Origin: a virus
IMG/VR virus record: IMGVR_UViG_3300045988_001638
Span: 1 to 5,446 of that record
DNA: 5,446 nucleotides
Direction: 5' to 3' (one strand)
The translations under genes were made by a program, and so were the position numbers. Within the stretch, counting starts at the first letter, position 1. Each line of letters opens with the position of its first letter. Shown here in pieces: positions 1-5,446 of the stretch. The notes under the pieces were generated by a model. The model was not told where the DNA came from. It did not search any database and saw nothing but the letters and a program-made list of their open reading frames with translations.

Positions 1-55
1 AGAGTTTATTACAGACAAAGGAAAAGAATATCGTGATTACAACTATTTAAACGCA
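1..55. repeat. Terminal redundancy, copy 1. Identical to 5392-5446, marking a closed circular genome of 5,391 nt.
   Basis: Base-by-base comparison shows agagtttattacagacaaaggaaaagaatatcgtgattacaactatttaaacgca at both 1-55 and 5392-5446 (offset 5391). The reading frame is continuous across the junction. A 55-nt overlap is typical of a k-mer overlap in a circular assembly. Confidence 0.95.
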
Positions 56-1204
56 CACTTCGATATAACAGCAGCCAATAAAGGCTTAAAATACACCTAC
101 AAAACAAGCACACAACAAATACAAGGAAAACTAAGCGGATTCGCAAAATTGAATGAGCCTAATTCATTACATGAAGTTCCATTAACACAATTCGATACAC
201 TAAGAGAAAATATCCTAAAGGCAGGTAAAGAAATATATTCACTAGAGGCATCAACAAATGATTTAACACTAGCAACCTTAGACAGAAATACGGAAACAGG
301 GCAACTCTATGCAGCAACAGCAGGAAATGGATTATTATTAAAAACATATCAATCTGATAAATTTAACAACTGGATTTCAACAGAATGGATAGATGGAGAA
401 AATGGAATCAGTGCAGTAACAGCAATTAGTACAGCGGGGGATAAATTCACAATAGACCAGTTAAATCTGTCGAAAAAAGTATACGACATGTTGAACCGAA
501 TAGCAATAAGTGGTGGGACATATCAAGATTGGGTAGAAACCGTGTATACATCAGGCTGGGAAATGCACACAGAAACACCCGTATATGAGGGTGGAATGTC
601 AGCGGAAATAGAATTCCAAGAAGTAGTAAGTACAGCAGCAACAACAGAGGAAGCACTAGGATCACTAGCAGGAAGAGGTAAAGATACAAATAAGAAAGGC
701 GGACAATTACACATAAAAATAAAAGAGCCATGTTATATCATGGGAATAGTAAGTATAACACCACGAGTAGATTACTGCCAAGGGAATGACTGGGATATAT
801 TCCAGCTAAAGACAATGGACGATCTACACAAGCCAGCACTAGATGGAATAGGCTATCAAGACTTACTTACTTACGAAATGGCAAGTTGGGGAGGCACTGA
901 AAATGCGAAATCGGTGGGAAAACAACCAGCATGGATAAATTACATGACAAACTGGAATAAGACTTACGGAACTTTCGCAGAACAAGGGAATGAGGCATTT
1001 ATGGTACTAAATAGATACTATGAACCAATTAACGGAACTTTTGATTCAGGAAAAGAAATAGACGCAAGTACATACATAGACCCAAGTAAGTATAACTATA
1101 TATTCGCTGAAACAAATGCAGAAAGCCAAAATTTTTGGGTACAACTAGGATTCGCAATCGAAGCAAGGAGAATGATGTCAGCAAAACAAATACCAAACTT
1201 ATAA
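1..1204 (+). CDS. VP1: Microviridae major capsid protein (VP1 / F-like), C-terminal part. Continues 4700-5446 across the circular junction.
   Basis: Frame 2 is open from position 2, with no stop before the TTG at 149 that the track used as a start. It is in phase with 4700-5446 because 5391 is divisible by 3. Position 1 is the third base of a Val codon. Stop TAA at 1202-1204. The joined ORF is 692+1204 = 1896 nt, or 631 aa. That size and the sequence character fit the large VP1 of non-phiX microviruses. Confidence 0.92.
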   Translation, partial: EFITDKGKEYRDYNYLNAHFDITAANKGLKYTYKTSTQQIQGKLSGFAKLNEPNSLHEVPLTQFDTLRENILKAGKEIYSLEASTNDLTLATLDRNTETGQLYAATAGNGLLLKTYQSDKFNNWISTEWIDGENGISAVTAISTAGDKFTIDQLNLSKKVYDMLNRIAISGGTYQDWVETVYTSGWEMHTETPVYEGGMSAEIEFQEVVSTAATTEEALGSLAGRGKDTNKKGGQLHIKIKEPCYIMGIVSITPRVDYCQGNDWDIFQLKTMDDLHKPALDGIGYQDLLTYEMASWGGTENAKSVGKQPAWINYMTNWNKTYGTFAEQGNEAFMVLNRYYEPINGTFDSGKEIDASTYIDPSKYNYIFAETNAESQNFWVQLGFAIEARRMMSAKQIPNL

Positions 1205-1206
1205 CT

Positions 1207-1524
1207 ATGAAAAGAAAAATACTAACAATAAAACCAACAACAGGATTCATACCAGTGTATGACGGTGAAAGCATTGAAACAAAAGTCGAAAGAGTCGTCC
1301 AGAACAAAGAACCAATCGAAGACGGTGCTGAAATAATATACACTGAAAAAAAACAAGGAGTGCAACCACAATACGACATAAGAACCGACAAATGGGAAAT
1401 AGCACAAAAAGCAATGGGTCTAGCACACGCAAACAGAATAGCCAAATCAGACGGAAGTTTAGACAAATGGCAACAAGAACAAGAACAACAGCAGCAACAG
1501 CAGCAACAACAAAAAAATGAATGA
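1207..1524 (+). CDS. Small microvirus protein of 105 aa with a C-terminal poly-Q tail. Function unknown; a VP3-like internal scaffolding role is possible from its position but unproven.
   Basis: The first ATG in this frame is at 1207, 2 nt after the VP1 stop, in the junction TAACTATG. The same junction precedes VP1 at 4700. The track start at 1135 is a TTG that overlaps VP1 by 70 nt and is less likely. The product MKRKILTIKPTTGFIPVYDGE...DIRTDKWEIAQKAM...QQEQEQQQQQQQQQKNE is hydrophilic, with codon usage like its neighbours. Stop TGA at 1522-1524. Confidence 0.7.
   Translation: MKRKILTIKPTTGFIPVYDGESIETKVERVVQNKEPIEDGAEIIYTEKKQGVQPQYDIRTDKWEIAQKAMGLAHANRIAKSDGSLDKWQQEQEQQQQQQQQQKNE
1471..1512 (+). 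repeat. In-frame CAR/GAA trinucleotide tract encoding QQEQEQQQQQQQQQ; nine uninterrupted Gln codons at 1486-1512.
   Basis: Codons read directly: caa caa gaa caa gaa caa cag cag caa cag cag caa caa caa. The tract sits at the 3' end of ORF 1207-1524. Confidence 0.9.
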
Positions 1525-1552
1525 TAATTAACACCGAAATATCGGTATGTGC

Positions 1553-1579
1553 ATAAGGGGTTTTTATACCCCTTATTTA
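1553..1579 (+). terminator. Hairpin followed by a short T run. Possible weak, attenuating intrinsic terminator after the capsid and small-protein genes.
   Basis: 9-bp stem ATAAGGGGT (1553-1561) / ACCCCTTAT (1568-1576) with loop TTTTAT, followed by only TT. A smaller hairpin ACCGA/TCGGT lies at 1533-1546 just upstream. Confidence 0.4.
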
Positions 1580-1582
1580 ACA

Positions 1583-1607
1583 AGTAGCGAGTTAATATTA
1601 CGCTACT
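1583..1607 (+). promoter_or_regulatory. Stem-loop carrying TAATATTAC in the loop. Candidate rolling-circle (+)-strand origin and nick site.
   Basis: Perfect 7-bp stem AGTAGCG (1583-1589) / CGCTACT (1601-1607) with 11-nt loop AGTTAATATTA. TAATATTAC occupies 1593-1601, and its last C is the first base of the 3' arm. It lies on the + strand, which is both the coding strand and the presumed virion strand, in an intergenic region. Confidence 0.5.
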
Positions 1608-1634
1608 GCACATTATTATCTAGTTACTAACAAT

Positions 1635-1651
1635 CGCTTTTCAAAAAAGCG
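1635..1651 (+). other. Short hairpin immediately upstream of VP2.
   Basis: Stem CGCTTTT (1635-1641) / AAAAGCG (1645-1651) with a 3-nt loop, 15 nt before the VP2 ATG. Confidence 0.5.
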
Positions 1652-1666
1652 CGAAAATCAATCACT

Positions 1667-2713
1667 ATGGGATTAAATGCAGGTAAAATGCTAGGAAGTG
1701 CAGCGCTAGACGGACTGACGGGAGGCGTCGGAGGACTAGTCTCAGGAGCAGTAGGAGGAATAGGCTCACTATTAGGCTTAGGCTCAAGAAAGGAAAAGAA
1801 AGCACGAGAAGCCGAAGAAAGAGAACATCAAAGGCAACTTGAATACATGGCTCTACAAGCAAAATATAACAAAGAACAGGCAGAATATTCCACAGAACTC
1901 GGCAAGGAAATGTGGGATTATACCAACTTTGAGAATCAAAAAAAACATTTGGAAGCAGCAGGACTGAATCCAGCACTACTATACGGAAACAGTGGCGGTG
2001 GCGGTGGAAGTGCAGCAGGCAGCGGAAGTGCAGCAGGCGTAGGGTTGCCATCATCAACAGGGGTAGGAATGGGCATCCAGTGGGAACAAATGGAAGCTCA
2101 AAAAGAGCTGGCTAAGGCAGAAGCCGCGAAAACAAACGCGGAGGCAGCTAAATTAATGACAACAGACACTGAAAAAGTTAAGTCAGAAACTGAAAAAAAT
2201 AAACAAGATATCAAAGAATCAGAAAAGAGAATAGAATCACTTACAAGTCAAACTCACAAAATAAACGAAGAAAGCAAAGGTATAGAATTTAACAATTATC
2301 TGAACGAACTAAGAAAAAACATCAAGCTGAGTGGAGAAGTAAATGGCAAGACAGTATGGACTAAGGGATTTGACGAGATTTTCAAGGAAAATGAACTACA
2401 AAGAATGTTAGCAGACTACGGAATATCACAGAAAGAATACCAAGAGGCAAAAAATGACAAGGAAGTAGCTATGAGGCTATCTGATGCTCTCAATGAGATT
2501 GCTAACGGAAAAATAGCGGTATTCGGCAAAATGGTAGAAGAGGCCCAACAGGCAAAAAATGAAACAGCTATACAAAAATGGCAGTTCGAACAGGACAAAG
2601 CACTCAGTGATTTAATCAACGATATAGGTGGAGAAGGAAAATACGGAAAACTACTAACAAAGATAATCAGCGCAATATTTAGCAAATGGCGCGGATATGG
2701 AGGAAAAAAATAA
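1667..2713 (+). CDS. VP2: Microviridae VP2 (minor capsid / DNA pilot protein, functional analogue of phiX174 H).
   Basis: 348 aa. N-terminal Gly/small-residue hydrophobic segment GSAALDGLTGGVGGLVSGAVGGIGSLLGLG (nt 1694-1783). The block WDYTNFENQKKHLEAAGLNPALLYG (GLNPALLYG at 1961-1987) is characteristic of gokusho/alpa-type VP2. This is followed by a poly-Gly/Ser/Ala linker and then a long K/E/Q-rich region that looks coiled-coil. It sits between the capsid module and Rep. Stop TAA at 2711-2713. Confidence 0.85.
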   Translation: MGLNAGKMLGSAALDGLTGGVGGLVSGAVGGIGSLLGLGSRKEKKAREAEEREHQRQLEYMALQAKYNKEQAEYSTELGKEMWDYTNFENQKKHLEAAGLNPALLYGNSGGGGGSAAGSGSAAGVGLPSSTGVGMGIQWEQMEAQKELAKAEAAKTNAEAAKLMTTDTEKVKSETEKNKQDIKESEKRIESLTSQTHKINEESKGIEFNNYLNELRKNIKLSGEVNGKTVWTKGFDEIFKENELQRMLADYGISQKEYQEAKNDKEVAMRLSDALNEIANGKIAVFGKMVEEAQQAKNETAIQKWQFEQDKALSDLINDIGGEGKYGKLLTKIISAIFSKWRGYGGKK

Positions 2714-3633
2714 TGTGCCTTTATACAAAATACATAACAAACCCAAAATACTTGCCAAATAAGAAAAATAATTACAGTCCGCCTGCCTGCAAAGACAGGC
2801 GGTTGTTATATGTGCCAGTGAAATGCGGAAAATGTATGGAGTGCAGAAAACAAAATCAAAGTCAGTGGGTAGTAAGGCTCTCGGAAGAAATCAGGAAAGA
2901 ACCTGAAGCACTATTTGTAACACTAACATTCAACGAAGAAAGTTACAAGGAGTTAGCGACCATCACGAAAAATGAAAATGAAATGTGTAGAATAGCACTA
3001 AGAAGAATGCTTGAAAACTACAGAGTACAGAATAAACGCACGATAAAACACTGGGTAGCAACAGAACTAGGCGATGACGGTAGGATACATATGCACGGAA
3101 TATTCTGGACTAACAAGGAAGTAATAGAAAAATATTGGAAATACGGCTTTATATTTATTGGAACATGGGTAAATGAACAGACAATATTTTACATCACAAA
3201 ATACATTATGAAAGTATCAACAGTAGACAAGAATTTCACACCAAAAATACTATGCAGCAAAGGAATAGGAAGTAGCTATCTCAAAAGAGGTGATGTAAGG
3301 AACAACAGATACAAAAAAAATGACACAGACGAATCATACAGGCTAAGGGACGGCAGAAAAATATCACTACCTGATTATTACAAGAGAAAAATATACTCAG
3401 AAGAAGAACGGGAAAAACTTTGGATCGAAAAACAAGAAAGAGGTTACCGCTATATTATGGGCGAAAAAGTAGACGTAGACAACGAACAAGAATATTTCAG
3501 TATACTCAATTTCTATCGTGAGAAAGCAAAACGAATCCTGAACGAAAAACCGCAAGATTGGGACAAAGAAAAGCACAAAAAACAACTTAAAAAACTTAAA
3601 GAATACAGAAAAAGATTTAAAAGCGGTTGTTAA
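2713..3633 (+). CDS. VP4: Microviridae VP4 replication initiator (HUH rolling-circle endonuclease, phiX174 A-like).
   Basis: Start chosen at ATG 2713, which overlaps the VP2 stop (TAATG) and has GGAGG at 2699-2703, 9 nt upstream. The track start at 2686 lies inside VP2. Motifs: CGKCMECR (2824-2847), RCR motif I LFVTLTF (2911-2931), HUH motif HMHGIFW (His codons 3088-3090 and 3094-3096), and two-tyrosine motif III YITKYIMK (3190-3213; compare phiX174 A YVAKYVNK). Stop TAA at 3631-3633. Confidence 0.92.
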   Translation: MCLYTKYITNPKYLPNKKNNYSPPACKDRRLLYVPVKCGKCMECRKQNQSQWVVRLSEEIRKEPEALFVTLTFNEESYKELATITKNENEMCRIALRRMLENYRVQNKRTIKHWVATELGDDGRIHMHGIFWTNKEVIEKYWKYGFIFIGTWVNEQTIFYITKYIMKVSTVDKNFTPKILCSKGIGSSYLKRGDVRNNRYKKNDTDESYRLRDGRKISLPDYYKRKIYSEEEREKLWIEKQERGYRYIMGEKVDVDNEQEYFSILNFYREKAKRILNEKPQDWDKEKHKKQLKKLKEYRKRFKSGC

Positions 3634-3647
3634 TAACCGCTTTTTTT
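3619..3647 (+). terminator. Rho-independent terminator closing the single + strand transcription unit.
   Basis: 10-bp stem AAAAGCGGTT (3619-3628) / AACCGCTTTT (3635-3644) with loop GTTAAT, which contains the VP4 stop codon. The stem runs into a T7 tract (3641-3647). Confidence 0.8.
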
Positions 3648-3648
3648 G

Positions 3649-3722
3649 TGTTGATAAGTGTGTAAAATCGGTTGATAAGTATGCAAAATCGGTTAATAAA
3701 CATGTTGATAACTTGTTGATAA
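3649..3722 (-). repeat. Left iteron cluster: five phased copies of TGTTGATAA-like 9-mers (TTATCAACA on the minus strand).
   Basis: TGTTGATAA at 3649-3657, 3703-3711 and 3714-3722. GGTTGATAA at 3670-3678. GGTTAATAA at 3691-3699. Start spacing is 21, 21, 12 and 11 nt. The middle copies sit in a 21-nt tandem duplication (3661-3681 vs 3682-3702, 17/21 identical). Confidence 0.85.
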
Positions 3723-3815
3723 AAAAATAACTTTTTAACACTTTATTAAGATTTGATTTATATATAGAAAAAAGATTTATATTTCAAAATTTAAAGATAT
3801 GAAGTTATAAAAAAG

Positions 3816-3879
3816 TTATGAACAGAGTTATTAACAAGATAAGTGGCTATATTTCAGGCTATTAACATAGTTATGAACA
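3816..3879 (+). repeat. Right iteron cluster: four copies of TTAT(G/T)AACA in the opposite orientation to the left cluster.
   Basis: TTATGAACA at 3816-3824 and 3871-3879, each inside the exact 12-mer AGTTATGAACAG (3814-3825 and 3869-3880). TTATTAACA at 3828-3836. cTATTAACA at 3859-3867. Start spacing is 12, 31 and 12 nt. Confidence 0.8.
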
Positions 3880-3901
3880 GTTTCAACAGCCTATTATTAT
3901 C

Positions 3902-3915
3902 ATATATATATATAT
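3902..3915. repeat. (AT)7 dinucleotide repeat within an extremely AT-rich stretch.
   Basis: atatatatatatat read directly. The flanking 12-mer TATATAGAAAAA occurs at both 3761-3772 and 3919-3930. Confidence 0.9.
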
Positions 3916-4007
3916 GTTTATATAGAAAAATATAAATATTATAATGATAGTACGGTTTCCATGCAACATCCATGTATCAGGAAGTGAGAGCCAAATAATA
4001 ATTTTTA

Positions 4008-4172
4008 CGCGGGCAAGGTGTCAACATCCGAGGGAAGCTCGCACTCTGTGCGCCGGAATCAGGCTACATGTCACACGGCAGCACTAAGTTATCTAAGGTG
4101 CTAACGCTATCGGGGCTACGCGCCCCTATACCCCTCGTACGCAACATAGTTGCGATTATCTATGCCTACGGC
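4008..4172 (+). other. GC-rich, hairpin-dense non-coding island. Candidate complementary-strand (ssDNA) origin or structured ncRNA; class unknown.
   Basis: By hand count, 93 of 165 nt are G/C (about 56%), against a very AT-rich context. Local hairpins: CGCAC/GTGCG (4040-4052), AGCAC/GTGCT (4080-4102), GGGGC/GCCCC (4112-4126) and CGCAAC/GTTGCG (4140-4154). A possible enclosing helix CGAGGG (4029-4034) / CCCTCG (4132-4137) would give a four-way junction. There is no convincing ORF. Confidence 0.45.
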
Positions 4173-4185
4173 AATTTTAACTAAA

Positions 4186-4222
4186 TATATTTGGTACTTT
4201 CGGAAAAAATACAGTACATTTG
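4186..4222 (+). promoter_or_regulatory. Bacteroidetes-type promoter (-33 TTTG / -7 TAnnTTTG) driving the whole gene set.
   Basis: TACATTTG at 4215-4222 matches the -7 consensus TAnnTTTG. TTTG at 4190-4193 lies 21 nt upstream of it, within the reported 19-21 nt spacing. A second TAnnTTTG match (TATATTTG, 4186-4193) overlaps the -33 element. The first ORF starts 30 nt downstream at 4252. Confidence 0.55.
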
Positions 4223-4251
4223 TGCAAAACAAATAAATATATAGGGAAAAA

Positions 4252-4464
4252 ATGAAAATTGATGAAAAGTACAAAAAACTGATTCGTGAAATCACAATTG
4301 CAGTATTATCAGCTATCCTGACATGGTTAGGAGTAAGTTGCACCAACATGTTGAGTATTCAGAAAAATGTGAAAGAAAGCAACATGAAAACAGAGAATAA
4401 GACAGACGGGAAAGTAAGTGCTGACAGCACAAGTATTAATTTATTTAACAAGGAGGACAAATAA
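4252..4464 (+). CDS. Small membrane or lipoprotein-like protein (70 aa), function unknown.
   Basis: ATG at 4252 is the first start after the promoter. The product has a charged N-terminus MKIDEKYKKLIRE, a hydrophobic segment ITIAVLSAILTWLGVS (nt 4291-4338), then Cys30 (4339-4341) and a hydrophilic 40-aa tail. Stop TAA at 4462-4464 overlaps the next ATG. Confidence 0.6.
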   Translation: MKIDEKYKKLIREITIAVLSAILTWLGVSCTNMLSIQKNVKESNMKTENKTDGKVSADSTSINLFNKEDK

Positions 4465-4697
4465 TGAATTTAAATGAATTATTTAAAATCAGACCAACAA
4501 GTGAAGAACAAAATGATTTTATAACAACAGTAGGGGAACATCTGGCTACAGAGAAACATTTCAAAACACGTGAAGAAGCAGAAAAATACATAGAGACACC
4601 GCAATGGGATATGATTCTAGCTGTGATGGCAGAAATGTTAACCATTCACGAAGAAGTAAAGCACAAAGAAGATATTGAAAATACTAAAAATAAATAA
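4464..4697 (+). CDS. Small acidic, predicted helical protein (77 aa), function unknown.
   Basis: ATG at 4464 overlaps the upstream stop (TAATG). AGGAGG at 4451-4456 lies 7 nt upstream. The product MNLNELFKIRPTSEEQNDFITTVGEHLATEKHFKTREEAEKYIETPQWDMILAVMAEM... resembles small conserved ORFs I recall seeing next to capsid genes in gut microviruses; this is unverified memory. Stop TAA at 4695-4697. Confidence 0.65.
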   Translation: MNLNELFKIRPTSEEQNDFITTVGEHLATEKHFKTREEAEKYIETPQWDMILAVMAEMLTIHEEVKHKEDIENTKNK

Positions 4698-4699
4698 CT

Positions 4700-5446
4700 A
4701 TGACAATAAAAAAATCAATAGGGAAAAATACAATAGGAGGCGGAAGTAAAATGACCGTCGACCTACACACGTACAACAGAAGTACACACAATCTATCATA
4801 CGCGTGGAGAAGTAGCATGGGGGTAGGAACACTAGTTCCATGCATGAAAATAGTGGGATTACCAGGAGATACATTTGATATTGCAATAGATACAAGAGTA
4901 AATACACATCCAACAGTAGGCCCACTATTCGGTAGTTACAAATTACAAGTAGACATATTCACGGCGCCATTCCGATTATATAACGCGATGCTGCATAACA
5001 ACGCATTAAATGTTGGTATGGATATGAGCAAGGTAAAATTGCCTCAAATAAAAATAAAAATAAATGAAAAGGACAATCCTATCGACTCAACACATTTAAC
5101 ATTCTCATCATCAAGTATATTAGCATACTTGGGAATAAGAGGATTTTCAAACCAAATCAAAGAGACAGAAGTGACAATACCAAACGCAGTACCATTACTG
5201 ACATATTGGGATATTTTCAAAAACTATTACGCAAACAAACAGGAAGAAAAATGCAAGATACTAATGAAAGGCAATAAGGCCTACACAGTTGAAGATAAAT
5301 TGACTTATAACCACGTCGGCGAAACAATAGTTACGGGAGGTTATTTCATAATTCCAGGAGCAAATATAAACAGCAAAATAAAAATAGAAGTAGAGTTTAT
5401 TACAGACAAAGGAAAAGAATATCGTGATTACAACTATTTAAACGCA
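4700..5446 (+). CDS. VP1: Microviridae major capsid protein VP1, N-terminal 249 codons. Runs off the window end and continues at position 1. Absent from the supplied ORF track.
   Basis: I translated frame 2 from ATG 4700 by hand and found no stop through 5446. The product begins MTIKKSIGKNTIGGGSKMTVDLHTYNRSTHNLSYAWRSSMGVGTLVPCMKIVGLPGDTFDIAIDTRVNTHPTVGPLFGSYKLQVDIFTAPFRLYN...LLTYWDIFKNYYANKQEE. The blocks STHNLS...GTLVP...LPGDTFDI, GPLFGSYK.Q.D.F..P.RLY and YWDIF.NYY.N are hallmark N-terminal VP1/F-family blocks. An alternative in-frame start is ATG 4751, preceded by AGGAGG at 4735-4740. Confidence 0.9.
   Translation, partial: MTIKKSIGKNTIGGGSKMTVDLHTYNRSTHNLSYAWRSSMGVGTLVPCMKIVGLPGDTFDIAIDTRVNTHPTVGPLFGSYKLQVDIFTAPFRLYNAMLHNNALNVGMDMSKVKLPQIKIKINEKDNPIDSTHLTFSSSSILAYLGIRGFSNQIKETEVTIPNAVPLLTYWDIFKNYYANKQEEKCKILMKGNKAYTVEDKLTYNHVGETIVTGGYFIIPGANINSKIKIEVEFITDKGKEYRDYNYLNA
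5392..5446. repeat. Terminal redundancy, copy 2 (identical to 1-55).
   Basis: Exact 55/55 identity with the window start. Confidence 0.95.

Follow-up and report, generated by a model that had tools for sequence, protein, structure and literature searches.

Why does a compact GC-rich island, dense in hairpins, interrupt the otherwise AT-rich non-coding DNA of a microvirus? Here we analyse positions 4008-4172 of a 5,446-nt stretch of viral DNA (positions 1-5,446 of IMG/VR record IMGVR_UViG_3300045988_001638; hereafter the window), which comprises a complete circular microvirus genome of 5,390 nt, with bases 1-56 recurring at 5391-5446. The island is a real, conserved, strand-specific DNA element, the nearest relatives of which are putative origins of transfer (oriTs) of plasmids. 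Our leading reading, which we hold tentatively, is an oriT-type element present as an orphan copy and acting in the form of single-stranded DNA (ssDNA). All genes of the window are on the plus strand and encode a capsid protein (Phage_F), a pilot protein, a Rep protein (REP_ORF2-G2P) and the products of small open reading frames (ORFs); a relaxase gene is absent from the protein family annotation of the window. The island sits in a 618-nt non-coding region that extends from the Rep terminator (3619-3644) to a Bacteroidota-type promoter. Its GC content, put at 56% by hand count in a first-pass annotation of the sequence, is 93/165 (56.4%), against 23.4% in 3650-4000 and 21.5% in 4173-4251.

A family of elements that fold on one strand

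The island (approximately 4006-4139) is a member of a family of ~130-nt elements found at 66 loci. What the members share is a short helix that closes the element, TATA, a G/C hairpin in which the stem covaries, the invariant stretch ATAGCG(A/T)TAGCACC and additional hairpins. A 40-nt core, GGTGCTA(A/T)CGCTAT-[G/C hairpin]-TATACCCCC, is 85-97% identical in many Alpavirinae-like microviruses of 6-7 kb. These gut and oral phages come from human, pig, rodent and lemur samples and also occur as proviruses in Prevotella genomes, and their capsid and Rep proteins are only ~20-30% identical to one another and to those of the window. Around the core, distant members have a 5' TTTATGGGG motif and a two-part hairpin, GTGCGC..GCGCAC.

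Seventeen diverse members, read on the complementary strand, share a structure made of the closing helix, the core hairpin and the two-part hairpin, in which 98.3% of cells pair. Double changes occur at seven pairs (27 cells), none of 500 shuffles equalled this structure, and slid controls gave 34-61%. Wobble pairs on the folded strand number 31 G·T against 0 A·C in the 17 members, 30 against 0 in the microvirus rows and 20 against 3 in the plasmid rows; the 31 G·T pairs and the lack of A·C pairs indicate that one strand folds. The T-rich strand folds better than its complement in 28/28 elements tested, and the element of one Prevotella provirus (L149), taken as ssDNA, has a z score of -4.0. 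The element works as one folded single strand, GGGGGTATA-[hairpin]-ATAGCG(A/T)TAGCACC. The order GGGGGTATA-hairpin-ATAGCG is found on the folded strand of 26/26 distinct Alpavirinae-like microvirus copies, and by this pattern the equivalent in the window is the minus strand, not the plus strand that the first-pass annotation had considered.

A covariance model built from distant relatives (R1) matches the minus strand of the window from 4139 to 4049 (28.3 bits, E 2e-5), and in close relatives of the phage the match reaches as far as the CCCGCGTAAAA end. Beyond the core, the whole element on the window minus strand lines up by eye with the relatives in the model-fitted alignment, where minus-strand GTGCTGCCG..CGGCGCAC-AGAG is placed against GTGCGCCC..GCGCAC-GAG. 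The same model has no match in phiX174, Chp2 or phiMH2K. The parts of the island are listed below, with the strand where one is assigned.

4006-4139, predicted folded strand minus: whole conserved element, closing helix to closing helix, delimited by the R1 match and an alignment of close relatives (A5)
4006-4013: closing helix P1, arm 1, TACGCGGG, partner of 4131-4139
4029-4034/4132-4137: closing helix of the first-pass annotation, CGAGGG/CCCTCG
4040-4052: small hairpin, CGCAC-TCT-GTGCG; rivals hpB for 4048-4052; 100% paired and invariant
4048-4084, minus: counterpart of hairpin hpB, in which 4048-4055 (GTGCGCCG) pairs with 4076-4084 (CGGCAGCAC), with one bulge
4080-4102: hairpin, AGCACT..GGTGCT
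4097-4111, minus: invariant unpaired stretch, GGTGCTAACGCTATC on the plus strand and GATAGCGTTAGCACC on the minus strand; includes TAGCGT (4100-4105, minus) and shows no variation in the clade
4112-4126: core G/C hairpin hpA, GGGGC-TACGC-GCCCC, the universal hairpin of the family; stem covaries, loop variable
4127-4134: TATACCCC box, flanking the core hairpin on the opposite side from the invariant stretch; conserved family-wide
4131-4139: closing helix P1, arm 2, CCCCTCGTA; also pairs with the alternative arm 4029-4034 of the first-pass annotation
4140-4154: accessory hairpin, CGCAAC-ATA-GTTGCG, directly outside the closing helix

The P1 arms are the counterpart of the TTTATGGGG / CCCCATAAA end in distant relatives, some of which hold another hairpin at the position of the accessory hairpin. 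The stem of hpA occurs as GGGGC/GCCCC, GGGAC/GTCCC, GGGGGC/GCCCCC and GGGGAC/GTCCCC, with loops of 3-8 nt. The stretch at 4097-4111, which is conserved in microviruses and plasmids in the form ATAGCG(A/T)TAGCACC, is a candidate recognition or nick region.

The motif was seen in a genome scan only in phage, provirus and mobile-element contexts. Fewer than 30 GenBank microvirus records carry the element, and the cultured B. fragilis microvirus phiHBP1 is without it. A looser DNA pattern, GCTAACGCTA..CYRTRCCC, was tried on viral contigs and discarded, as it gave only chance matches past the known relatives. At 12/66 loci (L145 4093, L149 7738, L141 2834, L142 4816 and 8 others) the folded strand carries another conserved motif, AAAACTGACAGC, at 68-181 nt 3' of the element; it never occurs on the opposite strand. 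A metagenome contig (L202, OEAS01000643.1) contains a CRISPR array at ~10959-10987 with a 47-nt repeat, GTTGTGATTTGCTTAAAAAGTTGTATCTTTGTGGTGTCAATTACAAC, and a 30-nt spacer, TATGGGGGCTGTGAGCCCCCTATACCCCCT; the spacer matches the core hairpin of the element, which indicates that hosts target this conserved site. A diverged copy without the 14-mer, CCTAT-GGGGGGCAAGCCCCCC-TATACCCCCC, is present at 497-594 of an 8.1-kb metagenome contig (L165, Ga0247610_10013476), a replicon that encodes a single-stranded DNA-binding protein (SSB) and a Rep_trans protein. Another copy occupies 1891-2019 of a 2.1-kb contig (L201), ~0.9 kb from a gene for a Xer-like tyrosine recombinase.

Conservation of the island among close relatives

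Close relatives of the phage were found by BLAST and pattern scans (GenBank MG945660 and MT135366, eight IMG/VR contigs and several metagenome contigs). The genomes of this clade (hereafter the window clade) are 5.4-5.8 kb in size, and helices were tested on alignment A5, which holds 14 distinct members. Mean column identity over the island is 92%, whereas the genomes are otherwise 70-91% identical, so the island is conserved beyond chance. The four hairpins of the first-pass annotation (4040-4052, 4080-4102, 4112-4126 and 4140-4154) are present where it had placed them, as are the short words that it had seen repeated. Two of them, 4112-4126 and 4140-4154, show one compensatory double change apiece, the latter to CGCATC/GATGCG in L002. 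The hairpin at 4080-4102 is disrupted in L002 and L010, and hpB, with 86.6% of cells paired, lacks its outer part in the same two genomes. The hairpin at 4040-4052 is without any variation; its invariance speaks neither for nor against pairing, and the helix is thus neither supported nor refuted.

The closing helix is formed by P1, in which 92.9% of cells are paired. The pairing 4029-4034/4132-4137, drawn earlier as a closing helix around the first three hairpins, is correct in position and weaker in support, at 78.6%. Two long-range pairings proposed as pseudoknots (4018-4027/4068-4076 and 4052-4064/4164-4172) have no counterpart in the relatives. Within the clade the wobble pairs are equivocal as to strand (5 versus 5 in hpB, 2 versus 1 in P1).

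The energy of the window sequence on its own is unremarkable against shuffles: folded as RNA, the z score is -1.56 for the plus strand and +0.12 for the minus strand; folded as DNA, it is -0.72 for the plus strand and -0.46 for the minus strand (4003-4142). The interpretation of the first-pass annotation held in part: the island is a conserved cis-acting element rich in hairpins, rather than a gene, and covariation together with strand-specific wobble in the family shows that it works as a folded single strand. The first-pass annotation had also matched it to no known RNA family. With the window and two relatives as queries, Rfam 15 yielded no match in the island at E values up to 10, and ARAGORN detected no transfer RNA (tRNA) or transfer-messenger RNA (tmRNA) there.

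Copies in Prevotella plasmids and an integrative mobilizable element

Many of the best-scoring family members lack a capsid gene. Three small replicons (L194, L158 and L180) encode initiators of the Rep_3 (theta) type, and eight small plasmids of cultured Prevotella contain the element. Seven of these plasmids, recovered from PLSDB, match the L194 element and belong to P. scopos, P. corporis (two), P. nigrescens, P. melaninogenica (two) and P. denticola; the eighth, from P. veroralis, is matched by the island of the window itself (78.8% over 66 nt). Element-bearing plasmids are 4.1-5.3 kb in size. Mean identity between plasmid and phage copies is 0.70, compared with 0.685 among phage copies.

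In L194, L158, L150 and the P. scopos plasmid NZ_CP072391, the element is located 45-180 nt upstream of a gene of ~410-483 codons; the relative orientation is constant, and the strand that folds is the antisense strand of the gene. In NZ_CP072391 the gene product bears the RefSeq annotation 'mobilization protein'. The L194 protein is 29% identical to it (E 3e-18), and the two have HN(K/R)R and H(E/K)DEG..N.HAH motifs in common, which by eye look like relaxase motifs I and III. On the P. veroralis plasmid (NZ_CP072332) the element precedes, by ~200 nt, a 300-aa ORF that is annotated only as hypothetical and may be a mobilization gene that has been split. L150, from a Prevotellaceae genome bin, has the module order of an NBU-like integrative mobilizable element (IME): integrase, DUF5906, DnaG-type primase, element, 483-aa gene. 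These contexts overturn the notion of a phage-specific single-strand origin and, more generally, of a role peculiar to ssDNA phages as first proposed, because the element also lies beside a mobilization gene in theta plasmids of Prevotella and in an IME.

Several contigs hold more than one copy, spaced 4.0-5.3 kb apart (three in L157; two each in L167, L191 and L194). They look like concatenated or over-assembled circles of small plasmids.

The island as a proposed orphan origin of transfer

In plasmids, the family probably serves as oriT. The position by a mobilization gene, the hairpin followed by an invariant single-stranded stretch and the folding on the antisense strand together make up the anatomy of an oriT. 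Mobilization genes usually enter the recipient last, so the strand antisense to the mobilization gene is the one expected to be transferred. On the strand with G·T wobbles, hpA with its covarying stem is followed by the invariant ATAGCG(A/T)TAGCACC, and the same arrangement is present on the window minus strand. In one subfamily, the folded strand carries TAA-N(1-3)-GTGCGCCC, close to the nick consensus of MOBQ oriTs, NWACCNNTAAGTGCGCCCTYNN, with the core TAAGTGCGCCCT (PMC3832669). Arm 1 of hpB in the window, TTAGTGCTGCCG on the minus strand, agrees with that core at 8/12 positions.

The element resembles the oriTs of mobilizable plasmids and IMEs of the MOBQ and MOBV types (RSF1010 and pMV158; NBU1, Tn4555 and Tn5520 of Bacteroides) in several respects: its plasmid and IME members are directly upstream of a mobilization gene, an inverted-repeat hairpin precedes a conserved single-stranded stretch, only the strand antisense to the mobilization gene folds, and the TAA..GTGCGCCC box is like the MOBQ nick consensus. 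It differs from them in that the carrier here is a lytic or temperate 5.4-kb ssDNA phage without a relaxase, the relaxase-like protein of the plasmid relatives fits no curated family, the nick region is a candidate only, and a closing helix around all 130 nt has not been described for oriT.

We propose that, in plasmids, a relaxase would bind the hairpin and nick the adjoining conserved stretch, and that the secretion system of a conjugative element would carry the nicked strand into the recipient. As the phage lacks a relaxase, it could use such a site only in trans: a plasmid or integrative element in the same cell would supply the relaxase, which would nick either the replicative form, while double-stranded, or an excised provirus. 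The phage genome would then be mobilized as ssDNA, and in the new cell it would be re-circularised and turned into duplex. For the window, we predict that the minus (non-coding) strand is the functional one. Among plasmids and integrative elements, cases with an oriT alone that rely on a borrowed relaxase are known (pOriT and iOriT; PMC11389934). Our literature search returned no report of an oriT in a phage genome. That the phage copy works as an oriT in trans seems to us a plausible proposal, put forward with rather less than even confidence.

Several observations weigh against an orphan oriT. The GTGCGCCC box is confined to one subfamily, has decayed to TTAGTGCTGCCG in the window and is gone from L002 and L010. 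The island's own sequence folds no better than shuffles. The plasmid assignment is itself putative, drawn from where the element sits, how it is built and how the neighbouring gene is annotated; sequence searches of Pfam, NCBIfam and PDB with the mobilization protein returned no match, and MOB-suite calls the element-bearing Prevotella plasmids non-mobilizable. An oriT used in trans would need no fixed orientation relative to the T-rich strand, yet such an orientation is kept in both phage clades. Finally, strong conservation across phages whose Rep and capsid proteins are <30% identical suggests a function needed in every cycle.

Orientation, base composition and the packaged strand

In both phage clades the orphan copy occupies the main non-coding region and its folded strand is the T-rich strand. 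Relative to the genes the two clades are opposite: wherever a capsid gene was detectable in an Alpavirinae-like phage, the coding strand is the one that folds, and in all members of the window clade it is the non-coding strand. Base composition was compared in the window (1-5390) and nine relatives (L002, L006, L010, L017, L019, L020, L027, L030 and L031). At four-fold degenerate sites of the coding strand, the window clade has 53-70% A and 14-17% T. In the same measure T reaches 44-62% in Alpavirinae-like phages, 59% in phiX174, 50% in Chp2 and 69% in phiHBP1, with A at 9-27% in the relatives and phiX174. Non-coding AT-rich DNA is skewed like the coding strand in 10/10 window-clade and 11/11 Alpavirinae-like genomes.

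These data raise the possibility that the window clade packages the strand complementary to all its genes, as a 'negative-sense' microvirus, and that the island, the orientation of which to the gene block is reversed in this clade, shows which strand becomes single-stranded. We consider this possible, if somewhat doubtful; the evidence is consistent with it and not decisive. Singleton substitutions on the coding strand of the window clade show C>A at 0.076 versus G>T at 0.016, and in an Alpavirinae cluster C>T is 0.126 versus 0.053 for G>A; the spectra give partial support to a flipped single-stranded strand. Against negative-sense packaging, the window clade has equal rates of C>T and G>A. 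A single inversion event underlies the link between orientation and skew, which could therefore be a coincidence. Composition alone is also not proof of the packaged strand, because the coding strand of the Bdellovibrio phage phiMH2K (L208, AF306496) is likewise A-rich and G-poor (A 0.45, C 0.25, G 0.07, T 0.24). This means that the packaged strand is poorly predicted by composition, or else that phiMH2K poses the same strand question. Literature searches on negative-sense microviruses, and on structured RNAs or origins in Alpavirinae, returned nothing relevant.

Alternative explanations

The most substantial alternative, which we nevertheless regard as less likely, retains the earlier idea of a complementary-strand (single-strand) origin and moves it to the minus strand, in keeping with the orientation to the T-rich strand. 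The element would fold on the packaged strand, where host RNA polymerase, primase or primosome would prime the conversion of ssDNA to duplex; on plasmids, the same signal would sit beside oriT because the transferred strand needs priming in the recipient. A single folding strand, which in Alpavirinae-like phages is the coding, T-rich strand expected in virions, accords with this, as does the joint inversion of element and compositional skew in the window clade; indeed, such an origin explains better than an oriT both the tight conservation over very different phages and the orientation matching the T-rich strand. The element is common to replicons with unrelated initiators (Rep_3 plasmids, REP_ORF2-G2P phages and the replicon with Rep_trans and SSB), and in L150 it adjoins a DnaG-type primase gene. 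Plasmid single-strand origin (sso) cassettes are host-specific, orientation-dependent and ~160 nt long (PMC5703833), and the element behaves like them; its invariant stretch includes TAGCGT, the CS-6 hexamer of ssoA (PMC4598088). Like ssoA, ssoU and the origins of M13, G4 and phiX174, it would be a folded ssDNA of ~130-160 nt, non-coding and active on one strand only, and like ssoA and ssoU it is limited to one host group and swapped between replicons with unrelated initiators. It is unlike all of these in that it has no RSB, shows no similarity to the M13, G4 or phiX174 sites and occurs in theta plasmids beside a mobilization gene, priming being a proposal only. The CS-6 agreement is just 6 nt, and no RSB box (TTATGCCGAGAAAATTT in ssoA) was seen by eye, the relatives having GCCCGAGA only. 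Moreover, every non-phage copy abuts a mobilization gene, as an oriT does, theta plasmids need no sso in vegetative replication, most microviruses (phiHBP1 included) live without the element, and the agreement of orientation and skew, from one inversion, is a 1-in-2 coincidence.

It is improbable that the island is a viral-strand (rolling-circle) origin, at which Rep (VP4, an HUH nuclease) would nick the conserved stretch by the hairpin, with the plasmid copies allowing replication or packaging by a phage. In its favour, sites of HUH nucleases typically combine a hairpin with a neighbouring invariant single-stranded stretch, both phage clades encode Reps of the REP_ORF2-G2P family, these genomes have no conserved phiX174-like origin elsewhere, and the carrier plasmids are similar in size to microvirus genomes. 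However, the Reps of carriers are <30% identical where the element core is 85-97% identical, most microviruses with a Rep of this family are without the element, and in plasmids and the integrative element the constant neighbour is a mobilization gene and no phage gene. The stem-loop origins of HUH Reps (in CRESS-DNA viruses, the double-strand origins of pT181 and pMV158, and the ends of IS200/IS605) similarly place a hairpin with a covarying stem beside an invariant sequence that is read single-stranded; here, by contrast, the invariant sequence flanks the hairpin and is not in its loop, the loop is variable and the nucleases of the replicons are unrelated. The phiX174-type nick sequence CAACTTGATATTAATAAC has no conserved match at <=4 mismatches in either clade; a phiX174-like origin in L145 (15/17 match) is not conserved in its close relative L149 and was taken as chance. 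Less probable again is a small structured RNA gene or RNA cis-element, the other suggestion of the first-pass annotation. Wobble of the G·U type would fit RNA, and the strand that folds in Alpavirinae-like phages is mRNA-sense, but there is no Rfam, tRNA or tmRNA match, both orientations relative to genes occur in the two phage clades, the folded strand of plasmids is antisense to the neighbouring gene, and that of the window clade is antisense to all genes and, by eye, carries no exact Bacteroidota-type -7 box. We give very little credence to a Xer/dif-type attachment site or a host-derived insertion. Relatives do occur as proviruses in Prevotella genomes, and integration at dif-like sites has been proposed for Alpavirinae (PMC3091885); the genome scan, however, limited the motif to phage, provirus and mobile-element contexts, and comparison of the L149 provirus with circular L145 places the crossover, GGTTAT, ~170-270 nt from the element, which is whole inside the provirus. 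A dif-like site would be divided between the two provirus ends, and the mapped junction excludes the element as an attachment site.

Implications for phage and plasmid transfer

If the island is an oriT, ssDNA phages of gut and oral Prevotella carry a handle by which plasmids and conjugative transposons could move them between cells without virions. Receptor specificity would be bypassed, and two routes of gene transfer that are usually held apart would become linked. If it is instead a shared signal for single-strand replication, Bacteroidota microviruses would gain their first candidate complementary-strand origin, and phages and plasmids would swap such cassettes. Microviridae have long been assumed to package the coding strand. 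On either reading the element marks the strand that becomes single-stranded, which makes the rule that all Microviridae do so testable, and the base composition of the window clade mirrors that of phiX174. The family is also a marker that ties uncultured microviruses to Prevotella hosts and their plasmids.

Surroundings of the island and the provirus junction

Outside the element, one further feature of the window serves the gene block beside it. Bacteroidota promoters have the consensus TTTG / TAnnTTTG, and the promoter was read from the sequence as follows.

4190-4222, plus: Bacteroidota-type promoter, TTTG at 4190-4193 and TACATTTG at 4215-4222

At the other end of the non-coding region, the Rep terminator (3619-3644) is a perfect 11-bp stem with A and T runs on both sides that is kept in L001 and L002, and it may stop transcription coming from both directions. 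Directly 3' of it are five direct repeats of GTTGATAA, one of them in the form GTTAATAA (3650-3657, 3671-3678, 3692-3699, 3704-3711 and 3715-3722). L001 and L002 retain these repeats, which could serve Rep or a host protein as iterons. Together the last two make AACTTGTTGATAAAAAAATAAC, with a loose likeness to the phiX174 origin AACTTGATATTAATAAC.

The L149 provirus is an integrated microvirus of ~6.5 kb at 1328-7836 of a Prevotella sp. SGI.027 contig (JBNPOM010000016.1), which we compared with L145 4185-4193. The crossover core GGTTAT lies at the -33 region of the main phage promoter, and the place in L145 that is homologous to the window promoter at 4190-4222 is the crossover site of the prophage. 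Directly outside the left junction are two small host ORFs on the opposite strand, which may be rplU/rpmA. Opposite to all phage genes, at 7094-6975 (minus), is an ORF for a hydrophobic product of 39 aa, MEKILKILGIIILAAIALYFVINLIVYIFLIYIAIEDLPM, preceded by a TAtaTTTG box; it may be a membrane peptide expressed from the provirus.

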